From contig CAYNRJ010000002.1 in NCBI GenBank assembly GCA_964399865.1, positions 97,108 to 161,107 on the forward strand: 64,000 bases of DNA. The letters run 5' to 3'. The stretch is from an uncultured Candidatus Saccharibacteria bacterium (GTDB lineage: Bacteria > Patescibacteriota > Minisyncoccia > Phycocordibacterales > UBA2100). Position 1 is the first letter of the stretch, and each line of letters starts with the position of its first letter. A model generated the notes under the pieces. It did not search any database, was not told the origin of the DNA, and worked only from the letters and a program-made list of their open reading frames with translations. A program made the translations under genes and the position numbers. This document shows, one piece after another, positions 27,418-59,115 of this stretch.

Positions 27418-27420
27418 CGT

Positions 27421-43486: not shown

Positions 43487-43527
43487 AAATAAACCTCAAA
43501 TGTCAAGTTTTTCCAGAGGTGGATGTA

Positions 43528-43556
43528 TTGACTTTTGCTCATCTTCAGGGTACTAT
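43528..43556 (+). promoter_or_regulatory. near-consensus sigma70 promoter for the sortase gene
   Basis: TTGACT-17 nt-TACTAT. Confidence 0.5.
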
Positions 43557-43569
43557 GTATGGGTACTTT

Positions 43570-44267: not shown

Positions 44268-44320
44268 GAAGCACCCTGAATTTCCTAGGAAATTCAGGGT
44301 GCTTTTCGTTTATACACATT
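44268..44320 (+). terminator. rho-independent terminator after the sortase gene
   Basis: Perfect 16-bp palindrome GCACCCTGAATTTCC-tag-GAAATTCAGGGTGC followed by TTTTCGTTTAT. Confidence 0.8.
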
Positions 44321-44361
44321 TATTACTTTGTCACATCACATGGTTTGGGTAGGATTAGTCC

Positions 44362-45060
44362 ATGGGCATGGAAGGTTTCAAGAGACCAGAAAAGACACCG
44401 ACTTCTGTGCCGTCTATTCGCCAAGCGGAAGAGGTGCAGCCGCTTGCTATTTCTCCCGACAAAACTATAAAACAGAAAGGAATGGAAAAGGGGGAGCAGC
44501 GCCTGGCAGCAATAAAAGCACGCTTGTCGGCGGCCACAGAAAAAGCAAGAGGAAAGGCGTCTAAAGGAGAAGCCTTTATTCTCGGCTCCCCTGAAATGAT
44601 CGGAGAAACAACGAAAGTGATACGAGAGAAATTTTCAAATACGATAACTGTATCGAAGAGTAAATTAGGAAATGCATACGAGGCAGGAAAGCAGAAGACG
44701 GAGAGTGGTTTTAGGAGGGTGGCGGAAAAAGCACGCTTGCTAGGGTTGAAAATTACGGCACCAGTAGCGGATAAATTCCTGCGAATGTGGAATGCTCCTA
44801 AGGTACGAAAAGCCGAGAGAAATGCGGAGACAGCAGAAAATTATGCACGCCAAGCAGAGGAGAGGATACAAAAGGCAAAAAGCGGCATTGAAGCGCATAA
44901 GGCACAAATTGCATTATTAGAGGAAGAAATTGTTGATGCGACAGAAGGGTACCAGGCTGCCGGCGAGTCAAAATATGAGTATCTTCTTCAAGCGAATGGT
45001 ATAAAAACAAAAATTTCCAGAGCAAGAGAGGAATTAAATAAGGTGCAAACGACAGCGTAG
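44362..45060 (+). CDS. hypothetical Lys/Glu/Ala-rich helical protein
   Basis: ORF with coiled-coil-like composition. No signal peptide. Confidence 0.5.
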   Translation: MGMEGFKRPEKTPTSVPSIRQAEEVQPLAISPDKTIKQKGMEKGEQRLAAIKARLSAATEKARGKASKGEAFILGSPEMIGETTKVIREKFSNTITVSKSKLGNAYEAGKQKTESGFRRVAEKARLLGLKITAPVADKFLRMWNAPKVRKAERNAETAENYARQAEERIQKAKSGIEAHKAQIALLEEEIVDATEGYQAAGESKYEYLLQANGIKTKISRAREELNKVQTTA

Positions 45061-45069
45061 AACTTACCT

Positions 45070-45348
45070 ATGGACCTCCTTGAATTAAAGAAAGAATTAA
45101 TGGCCACTCCTCTCAGTGTTGAGAGTCTTAAAATAGTGAGTGATATCTTTGATGCGGCGATTGCTCGTGGAAGTCTCACTGCTGCGGAAAAGGAACAGAT
45201 TGCGCATATGCTTGAAGCCGAAGAAGAGCTAGTAGATATTGAAATATCGGCAACCCAAGATGCGATAGCTGCACTGGACGAATATGGGAAAGAAGTCGAT
45301 GCCGCAGTAGATGTTGCCGTTTCTGCAATCGAAGAAGCGACTAAATAA
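45070..45348 (+). CDS. small acidic helical protein (partner of the upstream gene)
   Basis: 92 aa, acidic. Resembles 49597..49884 in composition and position. Confidence 0.45.
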   Translation: MDLLELKKELMATPLSVESLKIVSDIFDAAIARGSLTAAEKEQIAHMLEAEEELVDIEISATQDAIAALDEYGKEVDAAVDVAVSAIEEATK

Positions 45349-45414
45349 TTTCTCTCAAAGTTGCTCCAGGAATTGACCCTCCGGTTTTTCTGATGTATTC
45401 CTTTTGTTAGTCCT

Positions 45415-45930
45415 GTGCGCGAAATAGGTCCGTGCAGGTGGGTTGGAGCTACGAATATGACCGATGACTCGGAAGTTGCTGCAGCTGTGACGGCCGCAGG
45501 ATCGTCGCGGCGATGGGTGAGAAGGAACGTCACGATCATCCTCTCGGTTCTCGGTGCAGCGGTGCTCATGCTGCACGTCTACCTCTACTTCTGGGCGGTG
45601 GAACTGCCCTGGGGGATCGACACGGCGGTGTACTCGTGGGGAGCAGTTCTCGCGGTGATCGTCTTCTCCATCGCCTTCCGCATGCCGCGTCTCCTGAGGC
45701 AGACACCCGGCGACGAATTCGTCGCCATCACTGAAGTCGGGCTTTCCGTGCTGGCGATTCTCTTCCTCGGTATCGTGGCAGGACGTGCGATGACGAATGA
45801 GGTCAACTTTCCCCCTGGCGGCCAATTCGCTTTCTGGGGATATCTCACCTTCCTGGTCATCGTCATCACGGTCCAGGTCTACCTCAGCATCCGCTACGCC
45901 GAGCGCACCATCGGCAGCAGCCAGGGCTGA
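45415..45930 (+). CDS. high-GC small polytopic membrane protein (about 4 TM). The start may be at about 45457.
   Basis: Strong GC3 bias (about 85%) unlike the host genes. Four hydrophobic helices. Confidence 0.5.
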   Translation: MREIGPCRWVGATNMTDDSEVAAAVTAAGSSRRWVRRNVTIILSVLGAAVLMLHVYLYFWAVELPWGIDTAVYSWGAVLAVIVFSIAFRMPRLLRQTPGDEFVAITEVGLSVLAILFLGIVAGRAMTNEVNFPPGGQFAFWGYLTFLVIVITVQVYLSIRYAERTIGSSQG

Positions 45931-45970
45931 AGTTGCGCGACGAGCTTTAGATCAGACGTACACATTTCTT

Positions 45971-46010
45971 GGCGGCAGGGGAAACTCTGCCGCCGCATCT
46001 TTTCTATATT
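45971..46010 (+). terminator. rho-independent terminator
   Basis: GGCGGCAG-gggaaact-CTGCCGCC followed by ATCTTTTCTATATTTT. Confidence 0.65.
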
Positions 46011-46025
46011 TTAAGCCATATTATA

Positions 46026-46053
46026 TTGACAATTGTCAAAATAATGATATTAT
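46026..46053 (+). promoter_or_regulatory. consensus sigma70 promoter. The -35 box lies within the 14-bp palindrome TTGACAATTGTCAA.
   Basis: TTGACA-16 nt-TATTAT. The GGAGG ribosome-binding site of 46137 lies downstream. Confidence 0.6.
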
Positions 46054-46136
46054 TAAAAGCGGTGAATATCGTACTTTGTTTCACCATGATCCACTGATCC
46101 AATCGTTCCTGAACTCAAACGCCATGGAGGTAAAAC

Positions 46137-47072
46137 ATGGCCAATCTGCAGAAGCCGGCAATTCGGGGTGCCGGAAGACATACCCCGAAGAACTACTGGC
46201 GCTTTTATCCTGGGCGTAAGCCTCGGAGGTCGCCAGAAGGAAAAGTAGATGACCGCATTCTCTTCGAGAGCGCCATCTACGCGAGACTGCAGGACAGCAC
46301 GCAGAACGTTGCGGCAGGGATTGTGGTTGGGCCAACGCTCGACCGCATCTTGGCGGGCGGCATGGAGAAGCTCCAGGACGGAGCAGGTCTCGTAGCTGCG
46401 AGAGCAGTCGAGGACGAGGCCACCGGTGAGATTTCCATCCCGCCGGTTCGGACCTGGCCGGTGCCGGGCGGCTCGACCCTCCGGACCTTCATGGACCTGC
46501 TCACGCTTCGGCGCATGCCCGGCGGTTCTCTGAACGCCGTCCCGCTCGAGGAAGAGGGCGTCGTCTACGTCGAGTGCTGCACTGGCGATCCGCAGGAGAC
46601 TGAAGAGTCCTACATCGCCGCGCTTTCGGGGCTCTGGGTCCATGGCTCGGCCGAGTACATGGGCTTCGGCAACGCGCCTCTCATCAGTTCGCCAGGGAAG
46701 AGGCGTGGGAAGCCGAGGGCTGGCGCGGAGGACAAGGCTTCCGGTGTGAAGTTCTCCGAAACCTCAGCGCCGCAACTCTGGGGCGAATCTGTCGGCTCGA
46801 TGGTGAACGGCGTGCCCTTGTGGTGGAACCGCGTGTGGCGGCTCGAATTCACAAAGGACGAAACCCAGGCAATCATCGTCCGGCAGCAGAACAAGTACTA
46901 CATGCTCTACGTCGAGGATGGACGAGTGATGGTTGAAGATCGCTCGAATCAGCCCGGCATCGCGCAGGTGTACCTCGACAATGTCGCGAAGCTCGCGAGC
47001 CTCGGGGTCTCAACGACGCCGCTCATCGTTCCTTCGTCAGGCATCGTCCAGACGACGGCCGCGGCCGCGTAG
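46137..47072 (+). CDS. high-GC hypothetical cytoplasmic protein
   Basis: GGAGG-N6-ATG. About 63% GC. No signal peptide and no recognised domain. Confidence 0.55.
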   Translation: MANLQKPAIRGAGRHTPKNYWRFYPGRKPRRSPEGKVDDRILFESAIYARLQDSTQNVAAGIVVGPTLDRILAGGMEKLQDGAGLVAARAVEDEATGEISIPPVRTWPVPGGSTLRTFMDLLTLRRMPGGSLNAVPLEEEGVVYVECCTGDPQETEESYIAALSGLWVHGSAEYMGFGNAPLISSPGKRRGKPRAGAEDKASGVKFSETSAPQLWGESVGSMVNGVPLWWNRVWRLEFTKDETQAIIVRQQNKYYMLYVEDGRVMVEDRSNQPGIAQVYLDNVAKLASLGVSTTPLIVPSSGIVQTTAAAA

Positions 47073-47089
47073 TCAGTAGCCCTTCAGGG

Positions 47090-49600
47090 GTGAACGCGCG
47101 CTACAACACAGCGCATGGCAGTAATCTGCCATGCGCTTCATTTTTTTGCGTTATGATTAGTACTTATATGATAGAAGTGCTCCGTTCCAGTCCCATTGAT
47201 AAAGACAAATTTGTTGCTCGAATAAAACACGACTCCAAAGGTAATACTTGGTATCTCGATGAAGAGAGACGAGTAACGCTTTTGGATGATAAGGGTAAAG
47301 CGGAACTTCAAAGACAACAACAAGAGGAGAGAGCAGGTAACACCGTCGTCCCAGCGGACGGGTTTCCGTTATTTGGGACGAAAATGACAGCCTTTAATAA
47401 AGACATGCCGGCTCCTCCCGGGGAAATTGCTCCTCCGGAAAATGAATCTCATTCGACAACAACCAAACCTGCTGATGAAGTGGGGAGCGTAGGAGCAAAA
47501 AGCACTGAGGCCTCCGATATTAAAACTGCTCGCAGAGAAACAGGTAGCGCGTTAACTAATACATTTGGTCGGCCGGAAAAAATATCCGGTACGAATATAC
47601 CTTATTGGACCGATAAAGACGGCCGAATATTAATGGTTGGTGCGGACGCAGAGCCATACGAGGTTGAGCCCGGGGATACCGTCACGATCCCGAATTTGAA
47701 AGGGGAGAGAGTAACGAAAGAATTTAAAAGCAAAGACGAAGGCTGGATAGACGCTGCTCCGAAAAAGGCTCCGCGCAAAGATAAATCTACGTTTGAAAGT
47801 ACTGATAATGACGATGATGAAAAGGCGCGAAGAAAGGCAAAGGGGAAAAAAGAATCTACGCATAAAACACCAGGAGAGGAAGTTCCAGGCGTAACACTGA
47901 GAGCGAAAGATTTGCCTGATGAGGTTATAGAAAAAGACGGTAATTTCTATGTAAGGCGAGGAAACGCAATCAGCACCGCAAAACCCGAGGAGGTTGCTGC
48001 GTATGCAAAGTTTAAAGAAGAACAAGAGGCGTATCAAAAAAGATTAAAAGAAATCGCGGCTACGAAATCTACTGGGGACACGGTAGCACGACCCGGAATG
48101 AAAGGCGAAGACATCGAAGATCTTTTCCCAGATCGTGAACAAGTCCCCGGTCTTTCGCCCGAGAATGATGCAAGTATCAATCAAGTATTAAAGAAAGAGC
48201 TCGGGTTGGATGAAGGAGATGATACGGAAAATGTAATTCAAATCCCGGTGACAATTCCGCTGTGGTATAGAGAACACTTTGTCCCTGTCGGTAAATCTAA
48301 AAAAGTTTTTAAGTACGTTTTCCCTAGCGGCGAAGTGATGCGGGATGATGTAAAAGGTGACCCGGAAAAACACTTTACCGCAAAGGAAGTAGATTCATTG
48401 ATAGCGCTGCAGAAAGCGCGTGATCAGACAAAGATTGAGGCAGATTTACGCGCGAAGGTCGCGGCAGAAAAGGAGACGGAGGAAAGATTGAGTCCGCCTG
48501 AGGCTCCGAAAGTAAATCTGCCAGAATTGATCGATGGCGCGAAAGTTCTCACCGTCGCAGAGATCTTCGCGGACAAGAAAAAAGAACAACTGTTTCTCAA
48601 GGTTTGCAATCGCTTGGATGAGGAAGCAGGCAGTAGTACATATGCATGGGTTCTCACGAAGCTAGGGGAGGGTAAGCAAGCGTTGAGTGAAGGAGAAAGC
48701 CGGATGATCACGCGCGCTCGCCACGAATTCGCAAACAGAATGAAAATCGGCGAGACGTTGCGTGACGGTATCAAAAAAGAACACGTCGAGATGGCTATGA
48801 GGAGAAATGGCGCTCTTCGCGAAGACGCCGAATACAACGGCCCGGAGAAAACATTCGAAATCATGAAGACACAGGTGCTCAACATCGCGATGTCGCGATC
48901 CGCGACCGAACTTTTGCGCTACACAAACGCACTTTCCACCTTGAAACGCGTAGAGGAGTCTCAGGCGTATACGGCGTACACTAAGGAGGTAGAGATGCTA
49001 GTAAAGCGCGCAAATATCTCTCCAAATACCTATAGTGCGACAGGGTTCACTACTCCGGGTGGTAGAAAGTCAGGAAGATCAATCATCAAAAAAGAACTCA
49101 TTGACAAAAGGTACAGCTCATTTAGAAGCGCACTCAGGGCGCGTTCGTTCGTGCGGCAAGCAGGAAGACTTGATCGTGGAATTCAGAGTGCAGGATTTAC
49201 AAAAGAAGGAATAGAAAGTGCGCAGAATAGTATTGCGCAATTTCTCGCGCTCACCTTGACGGATGATCCAGATCTTCGACTTGCTCTTCAGCAGGCCGCC
49301 GCTCGTAATAAATCGATGGAGAGTATGCTTCCGCCGGAAGAGAAGCCGACTACGTTGAATGAAGCTCGGGAGGCGGGAGCTCAACAAGCGGGTGGGTTCA
49401 AGGCATTTTGGGAGAATCAAGTAAGTGGAATGTCGGATTTTGCAGCGTTACCCCGCGAGGACAAGATGCAAAGACTGAACGAATCGGCAGCTTCCTATGC
49501 TAATACTGAGCGAAAGCCGGGCATCTTGGGCCGTATACTGCAAATGATCTTCACCAAACTACTAGGTGTTGAGAAAGAGAAAATTGCGAAAACACTATGA
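47090..49600 (+). CDS. large charged hypothetical protein (about 800 aa, Lys/Glu-rich). The true start is probably about 47150 (MISTYMIEV).
   Basis: Long ORF, AT-richer than its neighbours. No signal peptide. Confidence 0.6.
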   Translation: MNARYNTAHGSNLPCASFFCVMISTYMIEVLRSSPIDKDKFVARIKHDSKGNTWYLDEERRVTLLDDKGKAELQRQQQEERAGNTVVPADGFPLFGTKMTAFNKDMPAPPGEIAPPENESHSTTTKPADEVGSVGAKSTEASDIKTARRETGSALTNTFGRPEKISGTNIPYWTDKDGRILMVGADAEPYEVEPGDTVTIPNLKGERVTKEFKSKDEGWIDAAPKKAPRKDKSTFESTDNDDDEKARRKAKGKKESTHKTPGEEVPGVTLRAKDLPDEVIEKDGNFYVRRGNAISTAKPEEVAAYAKFKEEQEAYQKRLKEIAATKSTGDTVARPGMKGEDIEDLFPDREQVPGLSPENDASINQVLKKELGLDEGDDTENVIQIPVTIPLWYREHFVPVGKSKKVFKYVFPSGEVMRDDVKGDPEKHFTAKEVDSLIALQKARDQTKIEADLRAKVAAEKETEERLSPPEAPKVNLPELIDGAKVLTVAEIFADKKKEQLFLKVCNRLDEEAGSSTYAWVLTKLGEGKQALSEGESRMITRARHEFANRMKIGETLRDGIKKEHVEMAMRRNGALREDAEYNGPEKTFEIMKTQVLNIAMSRSATELLRYTNALSTLKRVEESQAYTAYTKEVEMLVKRANISPNTYSATGFTTPGGRKSGRSIIKKELIDKRYSSFRSALRARSFVRQAGRLDRGIQSAGFTKEGIESAQNSIAQFLALTLTDDPDLRLALQQAAARNKSMESMLPPEEKPTTLNEAREAGAQQAGGFKAFWENQVSGMSDFAALPREDKMQRLNESAASYANTERKPGILGRILQMIFTKLLGVEKEKIAKTL

Positions 49601-49884
49601 CAAAAGAAATGAAAAATGAGGAATTGCAGGCCCTGCACGACAATGTTGCTCAGCTACTCACGGAGGGTAGGCAGGCGGATGCCAAGGAATATCTTGAGCA
49701 TCACGTATCGCTCCTTCCAGAAGAGTTGAAAAATGAGATTCTCGGCCTCATGTTTCTAGAGGCAGTAGCCGAAGAGGCGGAGGAACAGCAATCGATAGAG
49801 TCAATGCAAAAAGAAGGGTTGGATGCCATGCAGGCTCTAAAGGCGATACAGAAAGAGCTAGAAAAAAGTGCGCGCGCGTCTTGA
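49597..49884 (+). CDS. small acidic helical protein (partner of the upstream gene; ATGA overlap)
   Basis: 95 aa, acidic. Positional analogue of 45070..45348. Confidence 0.45.
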   Translation: MTKEMKNEELQALHDNVAQLLTEGRQADAKEYLEHHVSLLPEELKNEILGLMFLEAVAEEAEEQQSIESMQKEGLDAMQALKAIQKELEKSARAS

Positions 49885-49912
49885 TTGACAATTTGGGGTT
49901 TTTGTATAGTAA
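49881..49912 (+). promoter_or_regulatory. sigma70-like promoter (TTGACA ... TTTTTGTATAGTAA)
   Basis: TTGATTGACA then TGTATAGT. The same 14-mer TTTTTGTATAGTAA precedes rpmE at 33274. Confidence 0.5.
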
Positions 49913-49987
49913 TTATCGCGGTTCTCACGCGCTGTTTGCGTGAGTGTGCAATAGCAAGCCCTGCGGGGCTAAAGTGGAGACACGGCA

Positions 49988-50662
49988 ATGAAGAACATCA
50001 GCGTAGGGGCGTTCATCCTGAGCGCTCTCATTCATCTGGCGGTCACGCTGTTCGTGATCGTCGCACTCTACGGGACTTTCGAGCTGGACTTCCGAATCTA
50101 TCTCTTCGGTATCAATATTCCTTCGCTCGTCTATCTGGTCCCGCTCGTCTTCCTGTCCTACTTCGCGCAGAGGAAGCTTTCTGAAGCGCGCGGTTTTGGG
50201 CGAGTGCTCGATCTTCTGATCTCGGTCCCGATGCTCATCGCGATTGTGGGGGTCATCCTCCTGTGGCTCGGCATTCCGTCCGTCGAGTCGGTCGCGAACG
50301 AGATCGGTTCGTGGGCGAACCACGTGGTTTCGACCGAACCGACCTCCTACAAGGTCGTCGTGGTCCTTCTCTTCGGCTTGGTGTCGCTGCTCGACGTGCT
50401 CGGGCGTGATATCGGGGGAGTTCGTCTCTCGCGTTCCCGCGTGTTCGGGAAGCGGCTGGACGATTCGATTCGGACCCGCATCGTGCCCCAGTTCGAGATC
50501 GCCGATCAGGGGGAGATCATCGTCGGCGGCGAGGTCATTCACGTGACACTGACCGACGAGCACAAGCGGAGGATTGCCCAGAGGATTGCCGGCACGCCCG
50601 GCCTTCCGAAGCCACCTCCGGTTTCGGCGCCGGCTCATGGTCCGACCACTAGCCCTCCGTAG
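49988..50662 (+). CDS. high-GC polytopic membrane protein with a Pro-rich C-terminus
   Basis: GGAGA ribosome-binding site. At least 4 TM helices. GC3-rich. Confidence 0.55.
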   Translation: MKNISVGAFILSALIHLAVTLFVIVALYGTFELDFRIYLFGINIPSLVYLVPLVFLSYFAQRKLSEARGFGRVLDLLISVPMLIAIVGVILLWLGIPSVESVANEIGSWANHVVSTEPTSYKVVVVLLFGLVSLLDVLGRDIGGVRLSRSRVFGKRLDDSIRTRIVPQFEIADQGEIIVGGEVIHVTLTDEHKRRIAQRIAGTPGLPKPPPVSAPAHGPTTSPP

Positions 50663-50696
50663 GGAAGGCGCGCGTCATCGGGAGCGAACAATCCAT

Positions 50697-50730
50697 CGCG
50701 GCGAGGGAAACCTCGCCGCGTATCTTTTTA
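50697..50730 (+). terminator. rho-independent terminator
   Basis: CGCGGCGAGGG-aaa-CCTCGCCGCG followed by TATCTTTTTA. Confidence 0.75.
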
Positions 50731-50742
50731 ATAAGGTTTGTA

Positions 50743-50770
50743 TTGACAAACGTTGATTTTAATGTACTAT
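50743..50770 (+). promoter_or_regulatory. consensus sigma70 promoter
   Basis: TTGACA-16 nt-TACTAT. Confidence 0.55.
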
Positions 50771-50848
50771 GTTAGCACTGTCGCGCATGATGCGCGAAGA
50801 GTTGTTTGACTTGACCCATGCCCCCAGCGTTGGGGCATAACTGGAGGA

Positions 50849-51145
50849 GTGAAAATGGCAGGAAATGGTAATAAGAAGGCACATGGTGCTCCGATTCCCA
50901 TGGAGTCGCGTACTGGCCAGACCTTTGGCCAGTCCAGCGACGTTGTCGAGGAGCGCATCCGCGTCGTGATCCGCGTCGGTCGCTTCTCGGCGGAGCTCGA
51001 GCCGGATCAGGTTCCTGACCGGCTGGCGGCGCGCATCATTAGCTACCTCAAGGCCGGCATGGCCGGTCCGGAGGAGCCCGCGCAGCTTCCGCCGCCGAAG
51101 ACCCCTGTTCCCAATACGGGCGGTGAACCGCGTGAGGACGAGTAG
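50849..51145 (+). CDS. high-GC small hypothetical protein
   Basis: GGAGGAG-N5-ATG. 98 aa. Confidence 0.45.
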   Translation: MKMAGNGNKKAHGAPIPMESRTGQTFGQSSDVVEERIRVVIRVGRFSAELEPDQVPDRLAARIISYLKAGMAGPEEPAQLPPPKTPVPNTGGEPREDE

Positions 51146-51148
51146 ATC

Positions 51149-51715
51149 ATGACAGCAGGTCATGGCGCATCCGTGCGTATTCCGCCGGGCGACGAACCCC
51201 TCATGAGGCTCGACGATCAGGTCGCAGAGGTGAGCTTTTCGAGGTTCATTGTCAGCGACATCGCGAACGTCGAGATTTCTCCGAAGGCCCGTGCGAAGCT
51301 CGCCACCAGTATGGCGGCTGCGCTGGATCCCGGCACAAGTGGGGCCATCGCCGACCGCGACCTTGCGGCAACAAGGTCGGGCGGAAAGCCCCTCGCATTT
51401 CGCGCTGAAGAGGAGATGAGAAGAATGAGCGGCGGTACTTCGCACACGGAATCCCACCACGAAGAGTCTCATGCCGCGAAGGGCGGGAGGACGAAGTGGA
51501 TCATCGTCTGGGGGATCATCATCCTCGCTGCGTTGGCCGCCCTGTACTTCTTCGCTCCCGGCGTGAAGTCAGGGGTCGATGGGTTCGTCGGCGGCCTCAC
51601 TTCGAACGTCGAGCGGGTCGGTAGTCCAAGTGTGGGGGACACCCCCGGCGTCACACCCTGCGACGCCCAGTGGTATCACTACCCGGACCACACTGCGACC
51701 TACTGGTGCAGGTGA
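51149..51715 (+). CDS. high-GC hypothetical protein with one central TM helix
   Basis: Follows 50849..51145 with a 3-nt gap. TM segment WIIVWGIIILAALAALYFF. Confidence 0.5.
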   Translation: MTAGHGASVRIPPGDEPLMRLDDQVAEVSFSRFIVSDIANVEISPKARAKLATSMAAALDPGTSGAIADRDLAATRSGGKPLAFRAEEEMRRMSGGTSHTESHHEESHAAKGGRTKWIIVWGIIILAALAALYFFAPGVKSGVDGFVGGLTSNVERVGSPSVGDTPGVTPCDAQWYHYPDHTATYWCR

Positions 51716-51779
51716 CAACCGGTGACAAATCTAGATCGGCGGCGAGCTCTGTGCTTGCCGCCGTTTCCTTTTATATATA

Positions 51780-51807
51780 TTGACAAATCACACACAAGTG
51801 ATATAAT
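51780..51807 (+). promoter_or_regulatory. perfect-consensus sigma70 promoter with the inverted repeat ATCAC-N6-GTGAT in the spacer
   Basis: TTGACA-16 nt-TATAAT. A GC hairpin plus T-tract terminator lies just upstream (51736-51775). Confidence 0.6.
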
Positions 51808-51839
51808 TATTAGACATAAGTTCTCCTGTTCTTGTCAGT

Positions 51840-51964
51840 CTGGTTTTGGCGGTTTCCACCTTTGCGTCGCCAAAACCGGGCTGATAAAGCCCATTGATCT
51901 TTAAAAAAGTCAGTGGATTGTGGGCGGCAGAGTGTACGTGTGGAAACCACGTGCACTCTGCCGC
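51840..51964 (+). promoter_or_regulatory. structured ~190-nt 5' leader with two long hairpins (12-bp and 17-bp stems)
   Basis: CTGGTTTTGGCG...CGCCAAAACCGG (51840-51879) and GCGGCAGAGTGTACGTG-tggaaac-CACGTGCACTCTGCCGC (51924-51964). No T-tract follows. Confidence 0.4.
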
Positions 51965-52001
51965 TCGCACACCCGTGCCGGCATAACTTGGGAGCTTACC
52001 A

Positions 52002-52535
52002 ATGAAGAAGTCTGTTGTCTTTGCGGCTATCGCCGCGCTCTGCTTCTCCGCTTCGCTCGCGGCTGCCCAGCCGGCGCCCGTGGATACAACTCCGCCCGGC
52101 GCCGATCCTGCTGCAGTTGTCGTTACTACCACTCCGGGCTGTGTGACCCTCGAGGTCACGCATACTGGGATGGACACGACGCAGCGGACGGCAATCGAGC
52201 GCGAAATGCTGGTGAACGCCATGTTCGCCACGTCCGTGCGCGGTGTCGGCATCACCGCCGACGGCATCCAGGCGTGCAATGGCCTCGGTGTCGAGGTCGT
52301 CGACGGGCCGGACGTTCTCATCTACTCGATGATCCGGCAAGGCGTCGTGACCTTCAGGGTCCCGGCGACCGGCAACTACACCTACGTGTACGCCGGGATG
52401 TGCCTGGGTCCCAACGCCGGCATCTTCTTCGACAACCGCGACAATCTCGTGGTGCTCGAGGGAACCCGGATCTCGGTGGCTCTTTCCGTCAACCCGACGG
52501 TTCCGCCGCCGGCGCCCGGTCAGTGCGACCACTGA
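52002..52535 (+). CDS. high-GC small secreted Cys-containing protein
   Basis: Classic Sec signal peptide MKKSVVFAAIAALCFSASLAAAQP. GGGAG ribosome-binding site. Confidence 0.6.
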   Translation: MKKSVVFAAIAALCFSASLAAAQPAPVDTTPPGADPAAVVVTTTPGCVTLEVTHTGMDTTQRTAIEREMLVNAMFATSVRGVGITADGIQACNGLGVEVVDGPDVLIYSMIRQGVVTFRVPATGNYTYVYAGMCLGPNAGIFFDNRDNLVVLEGTRISVALSVNPTVPPPAPGQCDH

Positions 52536-52684
52536 CGTATTCTCTCGGAAGCGGCAGCAACTTGCTTGCCGCTTCCGGGGACCTTCTTTTTCGTGATTGT
52601 TTGTCTAAGTATTCTGTAGTATAGAGTTCGGAGACAAACCTTCATGAGAAGGTCTTGCCATCGATCCGGAAAGGAGACCGCGCG

Positions 52685-53188
52685 ATGCGTTTGTTCTTAA
52701 CATCCCTTTCGATCTTCGTGCTGGGGACGCTTACCGTTCCGCATGTCGCAAAGGCAGAAACCACTGTGCTCTTCAATCCCTGCGGCGCATTTTGCAATGC
52801 GGAGGAAAGGAGACCAGTTCCGTTTAGCGACGAACTGATCTGTTTCTACATCGAACAAGACGTTCAAGATGGGGTTCCGTTCTTCATTTACCGGAACGGC
52901 GACCTGATCAACAAGCATCCCGATGTGGAGCGGCATCCCGGGGAACCGAAGCCGCTGCATAACCAGATCAAGGCACCGTCGGATCGCTACTGCATCGGTG
53001 CCTGGTACATACGTCAGGCAACTGAGATTGTGGTCTGCAACAGCCACTGGAGCGTGACGTTGTCGCTCGTCGACATTCGTACCTATCTCGCGGCGGGAGA
53101 CAGGGCACCACAAACGCGGCACATTACCCTTTGCCTTATGGCAGCCGGCGAGTGCGTGGAACGGCTGTACGTGCACGGTGTCCAATGA
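52685..53188 (+). CDS. high-GC small secreted Cys-containing protein (start moved to MRLFLTS behind AAGGAG)
   Basis: Signal peptide MRLFLTSLSIFVLGTLTVPHVAKA. 8 Cys. Confidence 0.55.
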   Translation: MRLFLTSLSIFVLGTLTVPHVAKAETTVLFNPCGAFCNAEERRPVPFSDELICFYIEQDVQDGVPFFIYRNGDLINKHPDVERHPGEPKPLHNQIKAPSDRYCIGAWYIRQATEIVVCNSHWSVTLSLVDIRTYLAAGDRAPQTRHITLCLMAAGECVERLYVHGVQ

Positions 53189-53236
53189 GACGACATTCCT
53201 CTGGGCGGGGGCGGGAATGCCCTTCGCCCGAGGAAC

Positions 53237-53265
53237 TTGACTTCTGTCAAGTAATGAAGTATACT
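53237..53265 (+). promoter_or_regulatory. consensus sigma70 promoter. The -35 box lies within the palindrome TTGACTTCTGTCAA.
   Basis: TTGACT-17 nt-TATACT. Confidence 0.55.
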
Positions 53266-53299
53266 GAGGAAGTTACGACATTCAGTAACCCAATTTAAT

Positions 53300-54454
53300 A
53301 TGATACATAAAAACATATATACTATTCCTGCGGTCGCGGTTATTTTCGCTATTATCGGCGCATGTTTTTCTCCAACTATTGCGAGCGCGCAAAATTTTGC
53401 AACGCAGAACCCGTGTTGCCCAACCGTGAACTATGCGTACAACAAACCAACATCGACTTACACTTATAATAAGCCGACTTCTACGTATACAAACAATCAG
53501 CCGACAGCGACCTATGCGTACAACAAACCAACTGCTACGTATACAACTAACAAGCCTGCAACTTCGTACGCATACAATAAACCAGTCACTTCTTACGCGA
53601 ACAACACACCAGTTACGTCTTATTCGTACAATAAACCTGCTGCAGTTACATACACGACTAATAAGCCTGTAACCGCGTATACCTCCAACAAGCCTGTTAC
53701 TTCTTACGCTTCCAATAAGCCGGTTACGTCCTACGCAACGAATCAACCTGCGCCGGTTTACTACAAGACTCCGACTACCATTGTCACGAAGACCCCTACG
53801 TATGTATATAAACCTATCACGGTTACAAATCCGACATACGTAACTCCAAAGACTGTCGTTGTTACGACACCGAAGCATGTTACGTACACAACTCCTTCCT
53901 ACAACTACAATGTTGACGTTAACGTCGTACGACATGTCACTCAGCCGACGTACACTCAACCAGCTCCGACGTACATCGACAACAGCATCAACGATAGCTA
54001 CAACGACAACAGTGTGACTAACACGTACGTCTCTCACAGCTTCAATAGCGGTAATGCAGTAGTAGATTCTACGATCATCACTCCAATCGTTACGCCTCAT
54101 CAGCCGGTATATCAGCCAATTCAGCCAACGTACTACCCACCAGTTCAGTACAATTATCCATACGTTGCGCTCTCTCAGATCCCTTACACAGGATTTGATC
54201 TTGGCACCATGGGTAACATTCTCTACTGGGCAGGTCTCGTACTCTTCGCTCTCGCTCTTGGATACCTCGCTGTCTACTTCGGATCAGCGCTCATAAACGG
54301 TCGCCGTCCATCGATGTCTCAGATGATAACTTCACCTTTCTCTGGCATACTGTCAGCAAGGGGAAACCAGGCAGCTCGTTCTGCAGGGGATTCCATGTCG
54401 TTCGTTCGCTCTATGAACGGTGAAGCTCCTCGTATTATCATTAGTCGCGCTTAA
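53300..54454 (+). CDS. surface protein paralog 1 of a novel family: signal peptide, 12x nonapeptide Tyr/Thr/Asn/Lys/Pro repeats, C-terminal LSQIPYTGFDLG motif, TM helix and conserved cytoplasmic tail
   Basis: See the finding at 53300..59061. The C-terminus ...DSMSFVRSMNGEAPRIIISRA matches the other two paralogs. Confidence 0.7.
   Translation: MIHKNIYTIPAVAVIFAIIGACFSPTIASAQNFATQNPCCPTVNYAYNKPTSTYTYNKPTSTYTNNQPTATYAYNKPTATYTTNKPATSYAYNKPVTSYANNTPVTSYSYNKPAAVTYTTNKPVTAYTSNKPVTSYASNKPVTSYATNQPAPVYYKTPTTIVTKTPTYVYKPITVTNPTYVTPKTVVVTTPKHVTYTTPSYNYNVDVNVVRHVTQPTYTQPAPTYIDNSINDSYNDNSVTNTYVSHSFNSGNAVVDSTIITPIVTPHQPVYQPIQPTYYPPVQYNYPYVALSQIPYTGFDLGTMGNILYWAGLVLFALALGYLAVYFGSALINGRRPSMSQMITSPFSGILSARGNQAARSAGDSMSFVRSMNGEAPRIIISRA
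53430..53760 (+). repeat. 27-nt-period coding tandem repeat (12 imperfect copies, Y-x-[YT]-N-K-P-x-T-[ST])
   Basis: YAYNKPTST YTYNKPTST YTNNQPTAT YAYNKPTAT YTTNKPATS ... read from the translation. Confidence 0.8.
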
Positions 54455-54464
54455 TCTCTCGTAT

Positions 54465-55916
54465 ATGATCAAAGCTCTCGCAACGACTTCTATTATCACG
54501 TTTATTCTCGCTGCATCCGTCAGCATCCTTTCCATCGCAACCGTTGCGAGTGCTCAGGCTGTAACGACATGTTCGATCTATTCGACAGCGAGCTCAGGTT
54601 CAGGTCAGCCGGTAACGATCTCGTGGAATTCTTCTAACGCTACCTACGCGTTCCTCAATCCAGGGGGAAGCGTTGCAACGAACGGCTCACAAGTTGTGTA
54701 CCCAACTGTCACCACGACTTACACACTTACCGTAAACGGTGCACAGGGTCAGTCTTCTAATTGTCAGGTAACAGTACAGGTCGGCTCAACTTCGGGCTTG
54801 CCTTACTGCTCGATCAGCGCAGGAACGACAAACCTCAATCCGGGTAGCGCAGTAACTCTTACCTGGAACTCTTCCAACGCAAATTCAGCTTCCCTTACGA
54901 ACGTTGGTTCAGTTTCAACTTCTGGATCACAAACAGTGTATCCATGGAATACAACGACTTACATATTGACGGTTAACAATTCTCTAGGTCAGTCCTCGAA
55001 TTGTCAGACAACTGTGTACGTTGGTTCCTCTTCAACACAGGCACCGTCTTGCTGGATAACGATCTCTAACAACAATCAATACAATTACAATCAGCAGGCG
55101 ACTCTCTCGTGGGGCTCAACGAATGCAACATCTGCTTCTATCAACCCAAGCGTTGGATCAGTTTCAACCTCTGGTTCTCAGACCATCTACACATCTGGTA
55201 ATCAGATCTACACGATGACGGTCTACAACGCTCAGGGTCAAAGTGCGACATGCCAGACCTCGAGCTACTACCAGCCGGGCATACTTTCCTGCACCATCAC
55301 CGCAAACCCAGTAAACATTCAGAACGGCAGCTCTTCCTACCTTTCTTGGACATCAACAGGAGCGTCATCCGCGTACCTCAATGATGGTCTCGGAAACGTT
55401 GCTCCAAACGGCTCTCTTACTGTTCGTCCAGAGAATTCACGTAACTACATTCTCACAGTGATTGGCTCAAACGGTGCGCAGCAGACATGCACAACGTTCC
55501 TCTCGGTCTCAGGTTCATACCTTCCTCTCAATCAGATCCCTTACACAGGATTTGATTTGGGTCCGATAGGGAACACGATGTACTGGTTTGCGCTCGCACT
55601 CTTTGCGGTCGCTGCTGGATATCTCATTGTGTACTTCATGCCACTTAGTCGCATGCGCTCAACTCGTTCTAGCGTTCACGCTGAGCACGTACACGAGGCG
55701 ACGATCATTTCAGAAAGAGTTACAGTTCCTGCAATCTTTTCTAACAAGGAACCAAAATTCTCTACTGAAGTTCGTGCATATGTTGAGGCGCCAGAAAATC
55801 TTCCAGTACTTCACTCCGAAAGACACGAACAAAAGCACACTGAATTGAAGGATTCTATGTCCTTTGCAGAGAGCAAAGAGGGAGGTGCTCCAAGCATCTT
55901 TATCGGTAGAGCCTAA
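54465..55916 (+). CDS. surface protein paralog 2: signal peptide, five ~80-aa Cys-bracketed Ig-like repeats, LNQIPYTGFDLG motif, TM helix and long conserved tail. The start was moved to the ATG after the upstream stop.
   Basis: Repeats of type C.I.A...IQNGSS.LSW.S.NA.SA ... TY.LTV ... Q.S..CQTTV. C-terminus DSMSFAESKEGGAPSIFIGRA. Confidence 0.7.
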   Translation: MIKALATTSIITFILAASVSILSIATVASAQAVTTCSIYSTASSGSGQPVTISWNSSNATYAFLNPGGSVATNGSQVVYPTVTTTYTLTVNGAQGQSSNCQVTVQVGSTSGLPYCSISAGTTNLNPGSAVTLTWNSSNANSASLTNVGSVSTSGSQTVYPWNTTTYILTVNNSLGQSSNCQTTVYVGSSSTQAPSCWITISNNNQYNYNQQATLSWGSTNATSASINPSVGSVSTSGSQTIYTSGNQIYTMTVYNAQGQSATCQTSSYYQPGILSCTITANPVNIQNGSSSYLSWTSTGASSAYLNDGLGNVAPNGSLTVRPENSRNYILTVIGSNGAQQTCTTFLSVSGSYLPLNQIPYTGFDLGPIGNTMYWFALALFAVAAGYLIVYFMPLSRMRSTRSSVHAEHVHEATIISERVTVPAIFSNKEPKFSTEVRAYVEAPENLPVLHSERHEQKHTELKDSMSFAESKEGGAPSIFIGRA

Positions 55917-55932
55917 TTTCAAGGAAACCCAA

Positions 55933-55962
55933 AAGACCGCTCAGTAGAGCGGTTTTTTGTTG
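55933..55962 (+). terminator. rho-independent terminator
   Basis: GACCGCTC-agta-GAGCGGTC-like stem followed by TTTTTTGTTG. Confidence 0.65.
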
Positions 55963-55974
55963 ATTTAGCTGCTA

Positions 55975-56003
55975 TTGACAAGGGGGTATAAAGCTGGTAA
56001 TAT
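55975..56003 (+). promoter_or_regulatory. consensus sigma70 promoter
   Basis: TTGACA-17 nt-TAATAT. Confidence 0.55.
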
Positions 56004-56100
56004 CTGCCATTGGAGTGCGCCTTGAAAAGCGTACACACGACTTTCCGGGACTCATCCGAGATTCCGGCACTGATCTCTAACTTGAAGAAGGAATGCTGAA

Positions 56101-56625
56101 ATGAACATTCGTCTTATTGCAGTCGTCGTAGCCTTGTTGCTCGGTGTAGGGCTTTCATCGCCCGCCAACGCGCAGGCTGGTTGTGCACTGACTGACAATG
56201 CGTGCCAGGCAGCGCAAGCTGCTGCGGCGCGACCGGATTACAACGGGCCGCTGGCTCCCACTACTGAGCCGATGGTCTGCCTCTTCGTCGTCGCGTATGC
56301 GCCAACTGAGCTCGTCCTCTACGACGGGCCCTATCGGCGAAATCCCGGCGATGAACGCGTAATCCTGACCTGGCGTGTGCAGGCTGGTCACTGGAGTCCC
56401 TGGGCCAGGGATCCGTCTCTCTGGGCGCGGACAATTTGCATCCAGGAGCGGCTTCTGGCCGGGCGGAACACGGTTACGCTCTGCAATGGGCTGGTCGTGA
56501 ACCAAGGCTACCACTCGGAGTGGACCCGCGATCAGATCGCGTATCTCCTCCAGGTCCGAAGCCTCCCAGCCAGCGATCCTGCCAGTCTCCTCGGGACCGC
56601 ACGCAGCGCTGTCTACGGCCTCTAG
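56101..56625 (+). CDS. high-GC small secreted Cys-containing protein
   Basis: Signal peptide MNIRLIAVVVALLLGVGLSSPANAQA. A 10-bp GC hairpin follows the stop (56631-56668). Confidence 0.6.
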   Translation: MNIRLIAVVVALLLGVGLSSPANAQAGCALTDNACQAAQAAAARPDYNGPLAPTTEPMVCLFVVAYAPTELVLYDGPYRRNPGDERVILTWRVQAGHWSPWARDPSLWARTICIQERLLAGRNTVTLCNGLVVNQGYHSEWTRDQIAYLLQVRSLPASDPASLLGTARSAVYGL

Positions 56626-56713
56626 GGGCCTTCGCGAAGGCGGACAAGACCTCTTCGGTCCCCGCCTTCGCAACAACCTTCTATGAATCTTCAGTTAAGT
56701 TAAGGAATAATTT

Positions 56714-56771
56714 GGATGTCAACGGCGAAGAAGGATTCGCTTTTGACATCCGGAGAGATCCGGTATAAGTA
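56714..56771 (+). promoter_or_regulatory. sigma70 promoter with a flanking operator-like inverted repeat GGATGTCAA-N20-TTGACATCC
   Basis: The -35 TTGACA is at 56743. TATAAG/TAAGTA -10 elements lie 15-17 nt downstream. A small palindrome CCGGAGAGATCCGG sits in the spacer. Confidence 0.5.
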
Positions 56772-56802
56772 TGCATTATAAATTAGTAGATAAACCTCAT
56801 TT

Positions 56803-59061
56803 ATGAACTCATTAGTCACGCGAAAATCTGTCTTGATAAGTATTGTCGCAATTCTTACCTTCGCGGCTGGTCTTACCATTACTGTATCTTCACCCATCGG
56901 TGAAGGTTTCAGTGTTTCAATAAATTCTGCTCTCGCGTTCGGTAACTCGGGCGACGGCGGTTGTTGCGGTACTGATGAGCCTGATCAACCTGATTACGAT
57001 CCGCCATCTTATGATCCGCCGGACTACCCTGATTACGATCCGCCACCTTCTCATCCAAAGCCTCACTGTTCAGCGTACATCAATCCCGACCAGGTAAATT
57101 ATGGCGGTAGCGCTACTCTTACGTGGACCTCTGCAAATGCTACGTCTGCAACAGTAACGGATTTCGGTAGTGAGCCAGTAAACGGTTCCAAAGCCCTCTC
57201 CAACATCACTGCGAATAAGACCTACTACGTAACTGTCTATGGACCAGGTGGTTCTGCGACATGTTCAGATACGGTCAAAGTGATCAAGCCAATGCCGGTC
57301 TGTACGATCAACGCTAACCCTTCTACGATTCAGAACGGAGGTTCCTCTACACTCACATGGACCTCTTCGAATGCAACATCTGCATCGATCAATCAGGGTA
57401 TCGGCGGCGTATCTGTAAATGGTAACCGCTCTGTCTCTCCGACAGGCACAAAAACGTACACTCTTACGGTGACTGGTCCTGGTGGTACTGCAAACTGCCA
57501 AACGACTATTATCGTTCAGAATCAGCTTCCTAGCTGTACATTCAACATTAATCCAAACTCTGTGCAGTACGGTGGTAATGCCACAGCTACATGGACATCT
57601 CAGAACGCTACGTCCGCTACTATCAACCAGGGTGTCGGCTCAGTCGCGCTCAATGGTTCGTACACAGCTTCTAACTTAACCTCTACAAAGACGTACATCA
57701 TGACCGTCACTGGTCCTGGTGGCAGCGCAACTTGTCAGGACACAGTAACTGTCCAACAGCAATCTGCTCCTAGCTGTACGATCACTGTAAATCCTCACTC
57801 AGTACAAATGGGTGGTAGCGTGAGCATCGTTTGGTCTTCAAACAACGCTACGTCAGCTACACTTACAGATTTCGGTAGTGAGCCGGTTAACGGATCACGC
57901 TCAGTGTCCAACATAAATTCGAACAAGACGTATGTTTTGACAGTCACAGGCCCAGGTGGAACTGCGACATGTCAGGACTCAGTCGTCGTTCAGGAGTCAC
58001 CAGCTCCGTACTGTACGATCAGTGCAAATCCGTCATCGATACAATACGGCGGTTCCTCGACTCTCACGTGGTCTTCAAACAATGCAACGTCAGCAGTCAT
58101 TAATCACAGTATCGGTTCAGTTGGTGTAAATGGCTCGTACGTCGTTTCGAACATCTACTCGACAAAGACGTACATCATGACCGTCTACAACGCGCAGGGT
58201 CAGAGCGCGAACTGCCAGACAACGATCTACGTCAACGAAATTCAATCGAATCCATCTTGTACGATCAATGCAAATCCTAACTCTATCCAACAGGGTGGTT
58301 CTTCTTACCTCACTTGGTCATCTTCGAACGCCATCTCTGCCAACCTCTCGACTATCGGTTCTGTCGGGGTGAATGGAAGCCAGACTGTGTATCCGTACAA
58401 CACGACAACATACGTGCTCACGGTATACGGACAGAATGGTCAAAGCGCACAGTGTCAGACGACTGTGAACATCGGTGTTGTATACAACAACCCACCAAGC
58501 TGCTGGATCTCGATCTCAAACAATAACCAGTACGACTACAATAACAGCCAGGCGACCCTCTCATGGGGTTCCTCTAACGCGACAAGCGCGTATATCAATC
58601 CGAACGTCGGTTCTGTCTCAACGTACGGAACACGCGTAGTCTATGTCTCTGGCTATCAGGTCTACACAATGACCGTCTACAACGCGCAGGGTCAGAGTGC
58701 GACATGTCAGACACAGACAACTCAGATCCCTCCGTACGTAGCTCTCACTCAGATCCCTTACACAGGTATTGATCTTGGTGGTGCAGGTACGATGCTCTAC
58801 TACTTCGCGATCCTCGCGTTTACAGTAGCCGCCGCGTATCTCGCTATCTACTACGTTCCAGCGTTTGCAGGTATCAAAGCCCGCATCCCAGTTGAAACGA
58901 TGGAAGCTCCGATGATATTCGCTCGATCAGTTGCAGCCGCAGTTCCGTTCGTTCACACAGCTACTCGTCCGAACGTACCAGGAAGTTCATTCAAAGATGC
59001 GATGACATTCGCTCGCTCTGAGAATGGAAGTGCGCCTCGCATCGTGATCCAGAGAAATTAA
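56803..59061 (+). CDS. surface protein paralog 3 (752 aa): signal peptide, Pro/Asp/Tyr-rich segment, eight Cys-bracketed ~80-aa repeats, LTQIPYTGIDLG motif, TM helix and conserved tail
   Basis: C-terminus DAMTFARSENGSAPRIVIQRN. Repeats CTI.ANPS.IQ.GGSSTLTW.S.NATSA ... TY.LTV.GPGG.A.CQ. Confidence 0.75.
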   Translation: MNSLVTRKSVLISIVAILTFAAGLTITVSSPIGEGFSVSINSALAFGNSGDGGCCGTDEPDQPDYDPPSYDPPDYPDYDPPPSHPKPHCSAYINPDQVNYGGSATLTWTSANATSATVTDFGSEPVNGSKALSNITANKTYYVTVYGPGGSATCSDTVKVIKPMPVCTINANPSTIQNGGSSTLTWTSSNATSASINQGIGGVSVNGNRSVSPTGTKTYTLTVTGPGGTANCQTTIIVQNQLPSCTFNINPNSVQYGGNATATWTSQNATSATINQGVGSVALNGSYTASNLTSTKTYIMTVTGPGGSATCQDTVTVQQQSAPSCTITVNPHSVQMGGSVSIVWSSNNATSATLTDFGSEPVNGSRSVSNINSNKTYVLTVTGPGGTATCQDSVVVQESPAPYCTISANPSSIQYGGSSTLTWSSNNATSAVINHSIGSVGVNGSYVVSNIYSTKTYIMTVYNAQGQSANCQTTIYVNEIQSNPSCTINANPNSIQQGGSSYLTWSSSNAISANLSTIGSVGVNGSQTVYPYNTTTYVLTVYGQNGQSAQCQTTVNIGVVYNNPPSCWISISNNNQYDYNNSQATLSWGSSNATSAYINPNVGSVSTYGTRVVYVSGYQVYTMTVYNAQGQSATCQTQTTQIPPYVALTQIPYTGIDLGGAGTMLYYFAILAFTVAAAYLAIYYVPAFAGIKARIPVETMEAPMIFARSVAAAVPFVHTATRPNVPGSSFKDAMTFARSENGSAPRIVIQRN

Positions 59062-59083: not shown

Positions 59084-59115
59084 AAAATCGCCCCGGGAGG
59101 GGCGATTTTGTTTTA
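59084..59115. terminator. bidirectional rho-independent terminator between convergent genes
   Basis: AAAATCGCCCC-ggga-GGGGCGATTTT followed by GTTTTAT. Confidence 0.85.

Follow-up and report, generated by a model that had tools for sequence, protein, structure and literature searches.

Within a 64,000-nucleotide stretch of contig CAYNRJ010000002.1 (positions 97,108 to 161,107 of the forward strand; assembly GCA_964399865.1) from an uncultured bacterium of the candidate phyla radiation (CPR), here called the window, eight small GC-rich genes lie between a sortase gene and a gene for a class II aminoacyl-tRNA synthetase (aaRS). The region that holds them forms the enlarged, variable centre of a cell-surface locus that is conserved throughout Kaiserbacteria-like Paceibacterota, the group to which the flanking genes assign the organism; across this clade the variable slot is linked with elevated GC content, Shine-Dalgarno (SD) sites and strong promoters. 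In a typical cassette, a sigma70-type promoter whose -35 element reads ATTGACA is followed by a leader, an SD site and a small open reading frame (ORF) and, mostly, by a terminator of the cassette's own.

Eight GC-rich genes and their expression signals

The window as a whole has a GC content of 50.4%. The eight ORFs, all on the plus strand within 45.4-56.7 kb, stand at 56-65% GC, with a GC content at third codon positions (GC3) of 66-80%, and are the sole stretches in the 64 kb that rise at least 9 points above the median GC over 300 nucleotides (nt). They form three blocks (A-B, C-G and H) separated by genes of native composition, and the spacers between them drop to a GC of ~0.40. Their limits are listed below together with the associated signals, with corrected starts for A, D and G and with protein features as predicted from the translations (aa, amino acids; TM, transmembrane).

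45415-45930, plus: ORF A, GC 0.607, GC3 0.75; from ATG 45457 (45457..45930, GC 0.61) a 157-aa protein with 4 TM segments
45970..45995, plus: intrinsic terminator after A
46013..46053, plus: promoter of B, AAGCCAT-N5-ATTGACA-N16-(TG)ATATTAT, 11/12 match
46137..47072, plus: B, 311 aa, cytoplasmic, of a small CPR-only family; GC 0.627, GC3 0.77
47110..47137, plus: intrinsic terminator after B, inside an ORF that opens with GTG at 47090
49881..50720, plus: cassette C, with a weak promoter (9/12), a leader of ~70 nt, GGAG, the ORF and a terminator (50697-50720)
49988-50662, plus: C, 224 aa, multi-TM protein; GC 0.604, GC3 0.78
50743..51763, plus: cassette D-E, with a promoter (50743-50770), a structured leader, GGAGG and a terminator (51737-51763)
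50849-51145, plus: ORF D, GC 0.636, GC3 0.72; from ATG 50855 a 96-aa protein, within cassette D-E
51149-51715, plus: E, 188 aa, one TM segment and a Cys tail, within cassette D-E; GC 0.628, GC3 0.74
51780..52580, plus: cassette F, with a perfect consensus promoter (51780-51807), a leader of ~190 nt, an SD site and a terminator (52543-52580)
52002-52535, plus: F, 177 aa, secreted, Cys-containing orphan; GC 0.648, GC3 0.80
52655-53188, plus: ORF G, GC 0.558, GC3 0.66; from ATG 52685 (52685..53188) a 167-aa secreted, Cys-rich protein with AAGGAG upstream
55975..56625, plus: cassette H, with a promoter (55975-56003), a leader of ~90 nt and an SD-like GAAGGA
56101-56625, plus: H, 174 aa, secreted, Cys-containing; GC 0.627, GC3 0.69

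In the plus frames of these ORFs GC3 exceeds GC1, which in turn exceeds GC2; this order, together with signal peptides in F, G and H and TM segments in A, C and E, marks the plus frames as the coding frames, and high GC routinely produces long antisense ORFs such as those opposite them. The automatic gene calls of another assembly (L001) place C and F on the opposite strand (L001 5651-6364 and 7722-8258, corresponding to window 49925-50638 and 51996-52532), and F is missing from the NCBI-derived protein set. By their sequences, A and C are probably polytopic membrane proteins, F, G and H small secreted Cys-containing proteins, and E a single-pass protein with a Cys-bearing outer tail.

Codon usage, too, sets the cassette genes widely apart from host genes. 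Third-position A falls to 8.8% vs 25% in host genes, AAG makes up 92% vs 47% of Lys codons, CTG 27% vs 6% of Leu codons and CGG 25% vs 4% of Arg codons, so that both the GC1/GC2/GC3 pattern and the codon usage resemble those of a genome of ~62% GC.

On both strands of the 64 kb only six sigma70-type sites match the consensus in at least 10 of 12 positions, and five of these lie within the region, at 46026 (11/12), 50743, 51780 (12/12), 53237 and 55975; the sixth stands before the L25 gene. Hairpin-plus-T terminators follow A, B, C, E and F. Once the starts are corrected, an SD-type site (GGAGG, GGAG, AAGGAG or GAAGGA) is found 6-10 nt before the start of all eight GC-rich genes. The leaders are ~50-190 nt long, that of B being ~80 nt and ending in GGAGG, and two are more structured than shuffled controls (z = -3.3 for D, z = -6.4 for F); no leader matches an Rfam family. 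The F leader (51808-52001) contains a 22-bp near-perfect hairpin at 51919-51969, preceded by a small hairpin with a T-run at 51878-51892, and may act as an attenuator or stabiliser.

A first-pass annotation of this stretch had described a compositional mosaic of small high-GC membrane or secreted genes with a GC3 of about 85%, each led by a host-style SD site and most preceded by a terminator and one of seven near-perfect promoters. The mosaic is real, with a GC3 lower than had been supposed. Of the promoters, the five named above hold up, while those at 49885 and 56743 are weaker or wrongly spaced, and the one at 53237 serves a low-GC gene, l5. The terminators named above bear out that part of the description. 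The SD sites are present, yet they are not host-style, as host genes lack them. The annotation's small Cys-containing secreted proteins are recovered in F, G and H, whose translations show signal peptides and Cys in the mature part; the broader label of membrane or secreted genes also suits A, C and E but not B, which appears cytoplasmic.

The same annotation had offered as an alternative a chimeric metagenomic assembly; pieces of some high-GC organism would in that case have been fused to a 50% GC genome. Sharp GC switches are what such an artefact would produce. Nevertheless, the exact B protein is found on contigs separately assembled from SRR14271372, SRR14271366, SRR14271373 and SRR13076588, the last from another series, and these four contigs are 100% identical to the window and jointly cover 44275-57072, so that every GC junction is reproduced from independent read sets. 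The switches, moreover, match promoter and terminator borders, and the orders A-B-l3, l3-l4-C and surface gene-small gene-surface gene (the l genes are described below) recur in other organisms. A chimera is thereby refuted, its remaining probability being negligible. Two of the contigs, both from Logan, begin at 44275, which lies inside a perfect 36-nt palindrome (44269-44304); the palindrome is the likely cause of a break in the assembly graph, and 44275 was rejected as an island border.

Host translation style and the conserved surface locus

The SD-led cassettes stand in a genome whose other genes appear to start differently. The L25, S2, EF-Ts, GAPDH and other host genes of the window have no SD site; instead, a -10 box of the TGnTAnnnT type ends 7-15 nt before the ATG. 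This anatomy is of the leaderless mRNA type, and the host is predicted from it to be predominantly leaderless. Among 355 host-side genes in 80 related loci (L012-L091), TANNNT starts at -15 to -12 in 36%, with a peak of 15% at -12 vs ~2% per position elsewhere, and SD motifs occur at 6-8% of host ORF starts, approximately the chance level; the host background thus combines a -10 box at a fixed short distance with the lack of an SD site. In GC-elevated cargo of the slot, TANNNT occupies -15 to -12 in 4%. The 3' end of 16S rRNA, from which an anti-SD sequence could be read, was not found within the fetched loci. Genomes dominated by leaderless mRNA are known from Actinobacteria and the Deinococcus group. 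They share with the host genes here a -10 box whose end lies ~7 nt ahead of the start codon, without any SD site; unlike those genomes, the present one belongs to a CPR lineage and has a minority of SD-led genes concentrated in one locus. No report of leaderless expression in Kaiserbacteria or CPR was found in the searchable literature.

The genes interleaved with and flanking the cassettes are labelled l1 (44362), l2 (45070), l3 (47090-49600), l4 (49597), l5 (53300), l6 (54420) and l7 (56803). Their GC3 of 0.33-0.52 is that of the remaining window. With the conserved flanks, they are as follows.

42437..43486, minus: CARDB-domain membrane-anchored surface protein (Pfam CARDB, 2.2e-08), conserved left flank
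43519..44253, plus: sortase (Pfam Sortase, 5e-13), conserved left flank
44269..44304, plus: sortase terminator, a perfect 36-nt palindrome with a T-rich tail behind it
44362..45348, plus: l1 (232 aa, coiled-coil-like) and l2 (92 aa, acidic), host composition, GC3 0.41 and 0.33
47168..49884, plus: l3 (810 aa, Lys/Glu-rich) and l4 (95 aa, acidic), host composition, GC3 0.45 and 0.52
53237..55959, plus: l5 (53300-54454) and l6 (~54465-55916), surface proteins of host composition
56803..59061, plus: l7, 752-aa surface protein with repeats and an IPYTG motif, conserved right part
59113..60363, minus: class II aaRS (Pfam tRNA-synt_2b and HGTP_anticodon), conserved right flank, ThrRS-like (threonyl-tRNA synthetase) to judge by its motifs

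Of the genes inside the region, l1 and l3 start in the host style. The l1 gene looks leaderless, with a promoter-like site at 44328 whose -10 box ends 7 nt before the ATG; l1 and l2 match no family above threshold. Since the terminator of B falls inside the ORF that begins at GTG 47090, l3 is taken to start at ATG 47168, and the gene call of the other assembly (L001) gives the same start and 810 aa. The l3 protein, rich in Lys and Glu, is probably disordered; used as a query, it gave no match in genome or metagenome contigs. Homologues of l3 or l4 occur in the related loci L006, L007, L093, L094, L104 and L014, and relatives keep the l3-l4 pair and the B-l3 order. In all relatives with such homologues a -10 box directly precedes the ATG, and the l3 homologues of L006, L007, L093 and L094 share the host style of initiation. 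The l3-like genes have a GC3 below that of their own genomes (0.45 in L007, where other genes have ~0.70; L007 11012-11929, L093 1287-2690), so that the contrast between B and l3 in relatives is largely due to l3.

The surface genes form the more constant part of the locus. The l5-l6 unit runs from a strong promoter at 53237-53265 to a terminator at 55930-55959; each of its two proteins carries an IPYTG motif, a TM segment and an APRI-type tail, and homologues occur in more than 50 related loci, while the l7 homologue in L014 is 60% identical. The surface proteins share (Q)IPYTG(F/I)DLG, a TM segment and a long tail ending in APRI(V/I)IxR (l5, l6 and l7; L005 2796-4175; L014 11514-16780), an arrangement that may represent a clade-specific sorting signal. 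In l5-l7 the tail measures 60-100 aa and is not of the short basic type. Repeats of ~80 residues bracketed by Cys are common to l6 and l7. Elsewhere in the window, a single ORF of 6107 aa occupies 343-18666, and 26557-28841 and 38940-40073 hold a transketolase split into two genes and a PheRS-like (phenylalanyl-tRNA synthetase) gene in which the class II core is fused directly to FDX-ACB.

With the aaRS as anchor, 80 species-representative loci from GTDB and 80 metagenome loci were fetched; the enzyme is 73-84% identical across these 160 loci. A recurrent map emerges of aaRS, surface protein(s), small genes, sortase and CARDB gene. The sortase stands at the same relative position in 28 of the related loci, and the CARDB gene adjoins it in relatives too. 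Inspected contigs carrying relatives of B repeat parts of a more detailed series: CARDB (minus), sortase (plus), variable genes, an A-like TM protein, B, l3-like and l4-like genes, small secreted or TM proteins, IPYTG surface proteins and class II aaRS (minus). The arrangement is common to L005, L006, L007, L009-11, L014, L092-94 and L104 and to 28 GTDB loci, and, given such a map in relatives, the region is no island peculiar to this genome.

Several measures, taken unless stated otherwise from the 28 loci that have both aaRS and sortase, describe the slot. Genes of at least 100 aa lying at least 0.07 above genome GC number 23 among 90 cargo genes in the slot vs 1 among 347 outside (nominal P = 3e-16, such values being nominal because relatives' genes were predicted by a simple ORF caller and the species share ancestry), and seven non-overlapping metagenome loci replicate the difference (3/13 in the slot vs 0/78 outside). 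Strong promoters number 50 in 121 kb of slot vs 18 expected from the density outside. SD motifs precede 73% of GC-elevated cargo genes vs 15% of outside genes, as against 21% and 10% at internal control positions; if only the start of the longest ORF is considered, the figures are 52% vs 6%. Conserved surface genes of the l5-l7 type are not elevated (mean difference -0.001), and neither is the sortase.

Mean cargo GC follows 0.334 + 0.463 x genome GC and equals the genome value at ~0.62. The shift is one-sided, with 30 genes at +0.05 or more vs 4 at -0.05 or less. Three examples illustrate its size.

L014 (genome GC 0.50): 88-aa secreted protein between l7-like and l6-like genes, GC 0.62, GC3 0.83
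L090 (genome GC 0.43): 474-aa lipoprotein, GC 0.61
L063 (genome GC 0.42): 405-aa lipoprotein, GC 0.57

A search with the L090 lipoprotein found only itself, being swamped by an Ala/Pro-rich linker. High GC is not a general feature of secreted proteins, as those encoded outside the slot are not elevated, nor of SD-positive genes, the few of which outside the slot are not GC-rich.

Homologues and distribution of the cassette genes

The cassette proteins belong to families of very narrow distribution. An exhaustive profile-free search among 1.84 billion representatives returned only 24 relatives of B, and every inspected contig that carries one belongs to a CPR locus of this type. For A, B, C, G and H alike, such loci are the only places in which homologues turned up, at 27-37% identity. 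Above threshold, Pfam matches neither any of the eight window cassette proteins nor any of 30 GC-elevated cargo proteins from related loci, PHROGs none of 10 and NCBIfam none of eight cargo proteins. No relatives of B, C and H turned up in viral contigs, and none of B in phage genomes; both are weak negatives, as single-protein scans reach close relatives only. Members of the B family end in -AA, and the structure model of B, predicted with confidence, gave no fold match in the PDB. Comparison of the cassette proteins with each other led to rejection of the idea that they are paralogues.

The context of some of these families is retained as well. A-like TM proteins stand upstream of B in L006 and L009 and also occur in the L014 locus, a C homologue is found in the order l3-l4-C in L104, proteins of L005 and L010 have an E-like architecture, and homologues of G (L048 and L137) and H (L124 and L105) occur in two loci each; in L014 the H slot is occupied by an unrelated GC-rich gene of 88 aa. 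Upstream of B in L006, L007 and L009 the promoter (AAGCCAT-N5-ATTGACA-N16/17-TGATAnnnT), leader and SD site are all kept, and this conservation of the promoter with the ORF in distant relatives indicates that the whole cassette is the inherited unit.

Distribution among species is patchy. Within the 80 GTDB loci B is present in one, G in one, and A, C-F and H in none, compared with more than 50 for the flanking surface genes, and the same slot holds non-homologous genes in related genomes. B is absent from the locus of the nearest representative, and its closest homologue is that of L005, a distant organism with an aaRS 43% identical, and not that of the nearer L065. Between sortase and B, L094 carries a DUF6922/AbiEii toxin-antitoxin pair (1783-2660) and L092 an IS200-type Y1 transposase (4380-4835), from which it follows that the slot also receives mobile DNA. 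The window itself has no mobility genes and no border tRNA or direct repeats, its sole tRNA being at 36666.

These results alter much of what the first-pass annotation had proposed about origin. Its foreign-looking genes in a promoter-equipped island are borne out insofar as composition is atypical and separate promoter-leader-ORF-terminator units share one locus, but a recent island peculiar to this genome is not supported, since slot and GC-rich cargo recur in 28 related species. Neither its speculative high-GC source, for example actinobacterial, nor any other mainstream donor is supported by homology, since homologues are confined to CPR loci, F has none and Pfam matches none of the 38 proteins. 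The annotation had also named host-like GC in relatives as grounds for refutation, and in higher-GC relatives the homologues of B, C and H do have a GC near that of their own genomes, which argues against an actinobacterial source.

Origin of the cassettes and likeness to known systems

The reading preferred here, tentatively and with confidence a little short of even, is that these are moron-like, self-contained cassettes from a clade-specific, GC-rich, laterally exchanged pool that encodes a surface and secreted repertoire. They would supply a fast-turnover set of surface and secreted proteins for contact with partner cells, each cassette being expressed strongly and on its own. Membership of the pool, rather than capture from Actinobacteria, would account for a composition of ~0.60-0.65 GC whatever the resident genome, and lateral exchange between lineages would probably proceed via recombination in the conserved flanks. 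Several observations weigh against this reading. No close donor copy is at hand, the best relative of B being 36% identical, and F has no homologue among 5.8 billion clusters within the word-index limits of the search; no lineage with closer homologues thus stands out as donor. No integrase, tRNA or flanking repeats were found at the block edges. Codon usage does not discriminate among donors, correlating with that of the cargo at 0.89 for high-GC Kaiserbacteria, 0.92 for mycobacteriophage L5 and 0.88 for Pseudomonas phage D3112. Free exchange within the clade does not predict a one-sided upward shift, and that shift is seen even in genomes of 0.56-0.60 GC (25% of cargo at +0.05 or more vs 5% at -0.05 or less). 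A GC3 that is unameliorated without a close donor is explained no worse by maintenance in place than by recent transfer, and the P values for the slot are, as noted, nominal.

Maintenance in place is the main rival, possible but on balance unlikely. It holds that the cassettes are long-resident clade-specific genes whose synonymous sites selection keeps GC-rich, in connection with leadered, SD-dependent and strongly transcribed expression, with mRNA stability or translation control as possible targets; leaderless genomes would in effect contain a second expression dialect. Besides the unameliorated GC3 and the persistence of the shift in high-GC genomes, the co-occurrence of GC elevation, SD sites and strong promoters in the slot over genomes of 0.42-0.59 GC speaks for it, as do the near-constant 0.57-0.64 GC of families A and B in hosts of 0.50-0.58, the sharp fall in GC at ORF borders and the lack of Pfam matches for any cargo protein. 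Yet SD-led initiation has no known selective tie to GC3. The few SD-positive genes beyond the slot lack high GC, as do ribosomal and other highly expressed genes, l5 has normal GC despite its strong promoter, and B is no GC outlier in L005, L009 and L092. In a more elaborate form, the cassettes would be a selectively maintained second dialect, made up of consensus sigma70 promoter, leader, SD site, terminator and the codons of a ~62% GC genome, and tuned, at its strongest, to the expression machinery or composition of a partner bacterium. This is very improbable; it would explain why cargo GC lies near one value whatever the GC of the resident genome, and, if true, the genes or transcripts would act in or on the host, like T-DNA genes with plant-type signals.

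Two further explanations are improbable, if somewhat less so. Transfer across phyla from a high-GC, SD-using host or neighbour, for example from Actinobacteria or Proteobacteria, would suit SD-led genes within an SD-less genome and a composition and codon usage that fit any ~62% GC genome, including an actinobacteriophage (r = 0.92). It is opposed by the confinement of the homologues of A, B, C, G and H to same-type CPR loci and the lack of any for F, by the database negatives (0/38 Pfam, 0/10 PHROGs and 0/8 NCBIfam above threshold), by the retention of the B promoter and leader among CPR relatives, by AT-rich spacers, and by a few CPR-like codon preferences (CTC over CTG, GCG over GCC) that match Kaiserbacteria and not the two high-GC comparators. 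GC-biased gene conversion at a recombination hot spot, where allelic exchange of surface determinants would lift GC3 locally, is about as improbable. The locus is hypervariable between species and GC3 is the most elevated codon position, as this process would have it; still, the would-be recombination arms, namely the sortase and the l5-l7 genes, are unelevated, and the elevation does not extend past ORF borders and leaves out l3 and l4 within the region, observations with which biased conversion fits poorly.

The comparison implicit in the preferred reading, that of moron-like cassettes from a shared pool, is with phage morons, which are autonomous promoter-ORF-terminator units inserted between phage genes. 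In the window, too, matches to consensus place a predicted promoter and terminator of their own around a single ORF or short operon; the typical unit is monocistronic with a strong promoter and an intrinsic terminator, its composition is unlike that of its neighbours, and many of the cargo proteins are membrane or secreted proteins without an assigned function. Morons differ in residing in phages or prophages. The cassettes have no prophage context, PHROGs match or viral or phage relatives that could be found; they are flanked by housekeeping and surface genes, occupy a chromosomal slot conserved clade-wide and differ from the host in translation start. Genomic islands and plasticity zones likewise show variable content between conserved flanks, patchy distribution and atypical composition and codon usage (here GC 0.56-0.65 vs 0.50), and the toxin-antitoxin pair and IS200-type transposase in relatives' slots are in keeping with them. 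Here, however, no integrase, tRNA or direct repeats were found, and the cargo is GC-rich rather than AT-rich and comes from families confined to CPR, with conserved promoters.

A series of small and mostly orphan ORFs that all point the same way also recalls integron cassette arrays, in which an IntI integrase with attI accompanies promoter-less cassettes separated by attC sites. The units differ from these in having their own promoters and terminators, and no integrase domain or repeated attC-like sites were found in the window. The locus shares with Gram-positive sortase-dependent adhesin or pilus loci a sortase gene beside genes for surface proteins in which a TM segment comes after an LPXTG-like motif (IPYTG). 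It departs from them in the variant motif, in the long, cytoplasmic tail ending in APRI(V/I)IxR, and in GC-rich cargo proteins that lack a sorting motif. A clade-wide slot of GC-rich, SD-led, moron-like cassettes in otherwise leaderless genomes is new, and no description of such a slot in sortase loci of Kaiserbacteria or CPR was found in the searchable literature.

The prevailing view is that CPR bacteria live attached to other cells, and the proteins of contact are almost unknown for lineages like Kaiserbacteria. Lying between a sortase and its likely substrates, the cassettes most plausibly constitute a variable repertoire for contact with a partner. The locus provides a concrete, clade-wide set of candidates, comprising small secreted and membrane proteins predicted to be strongly and individually expressed as well as one conserved cytoplasmic protein without a match among solved structures, all of them adjoining the sortase and its likely surface substrates. 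Such GC-rich cassettes are prone to misannotation, as gene callers choose the wrong strand or start, and the combined signature of high GC, an SD site and a promoter of its own could be used to find similar genes in other CPR genomes. More generally, a single small genome contains two classes of genes that differ in composition and in translation start, which raises the testable question of what keeps their compositions apart.

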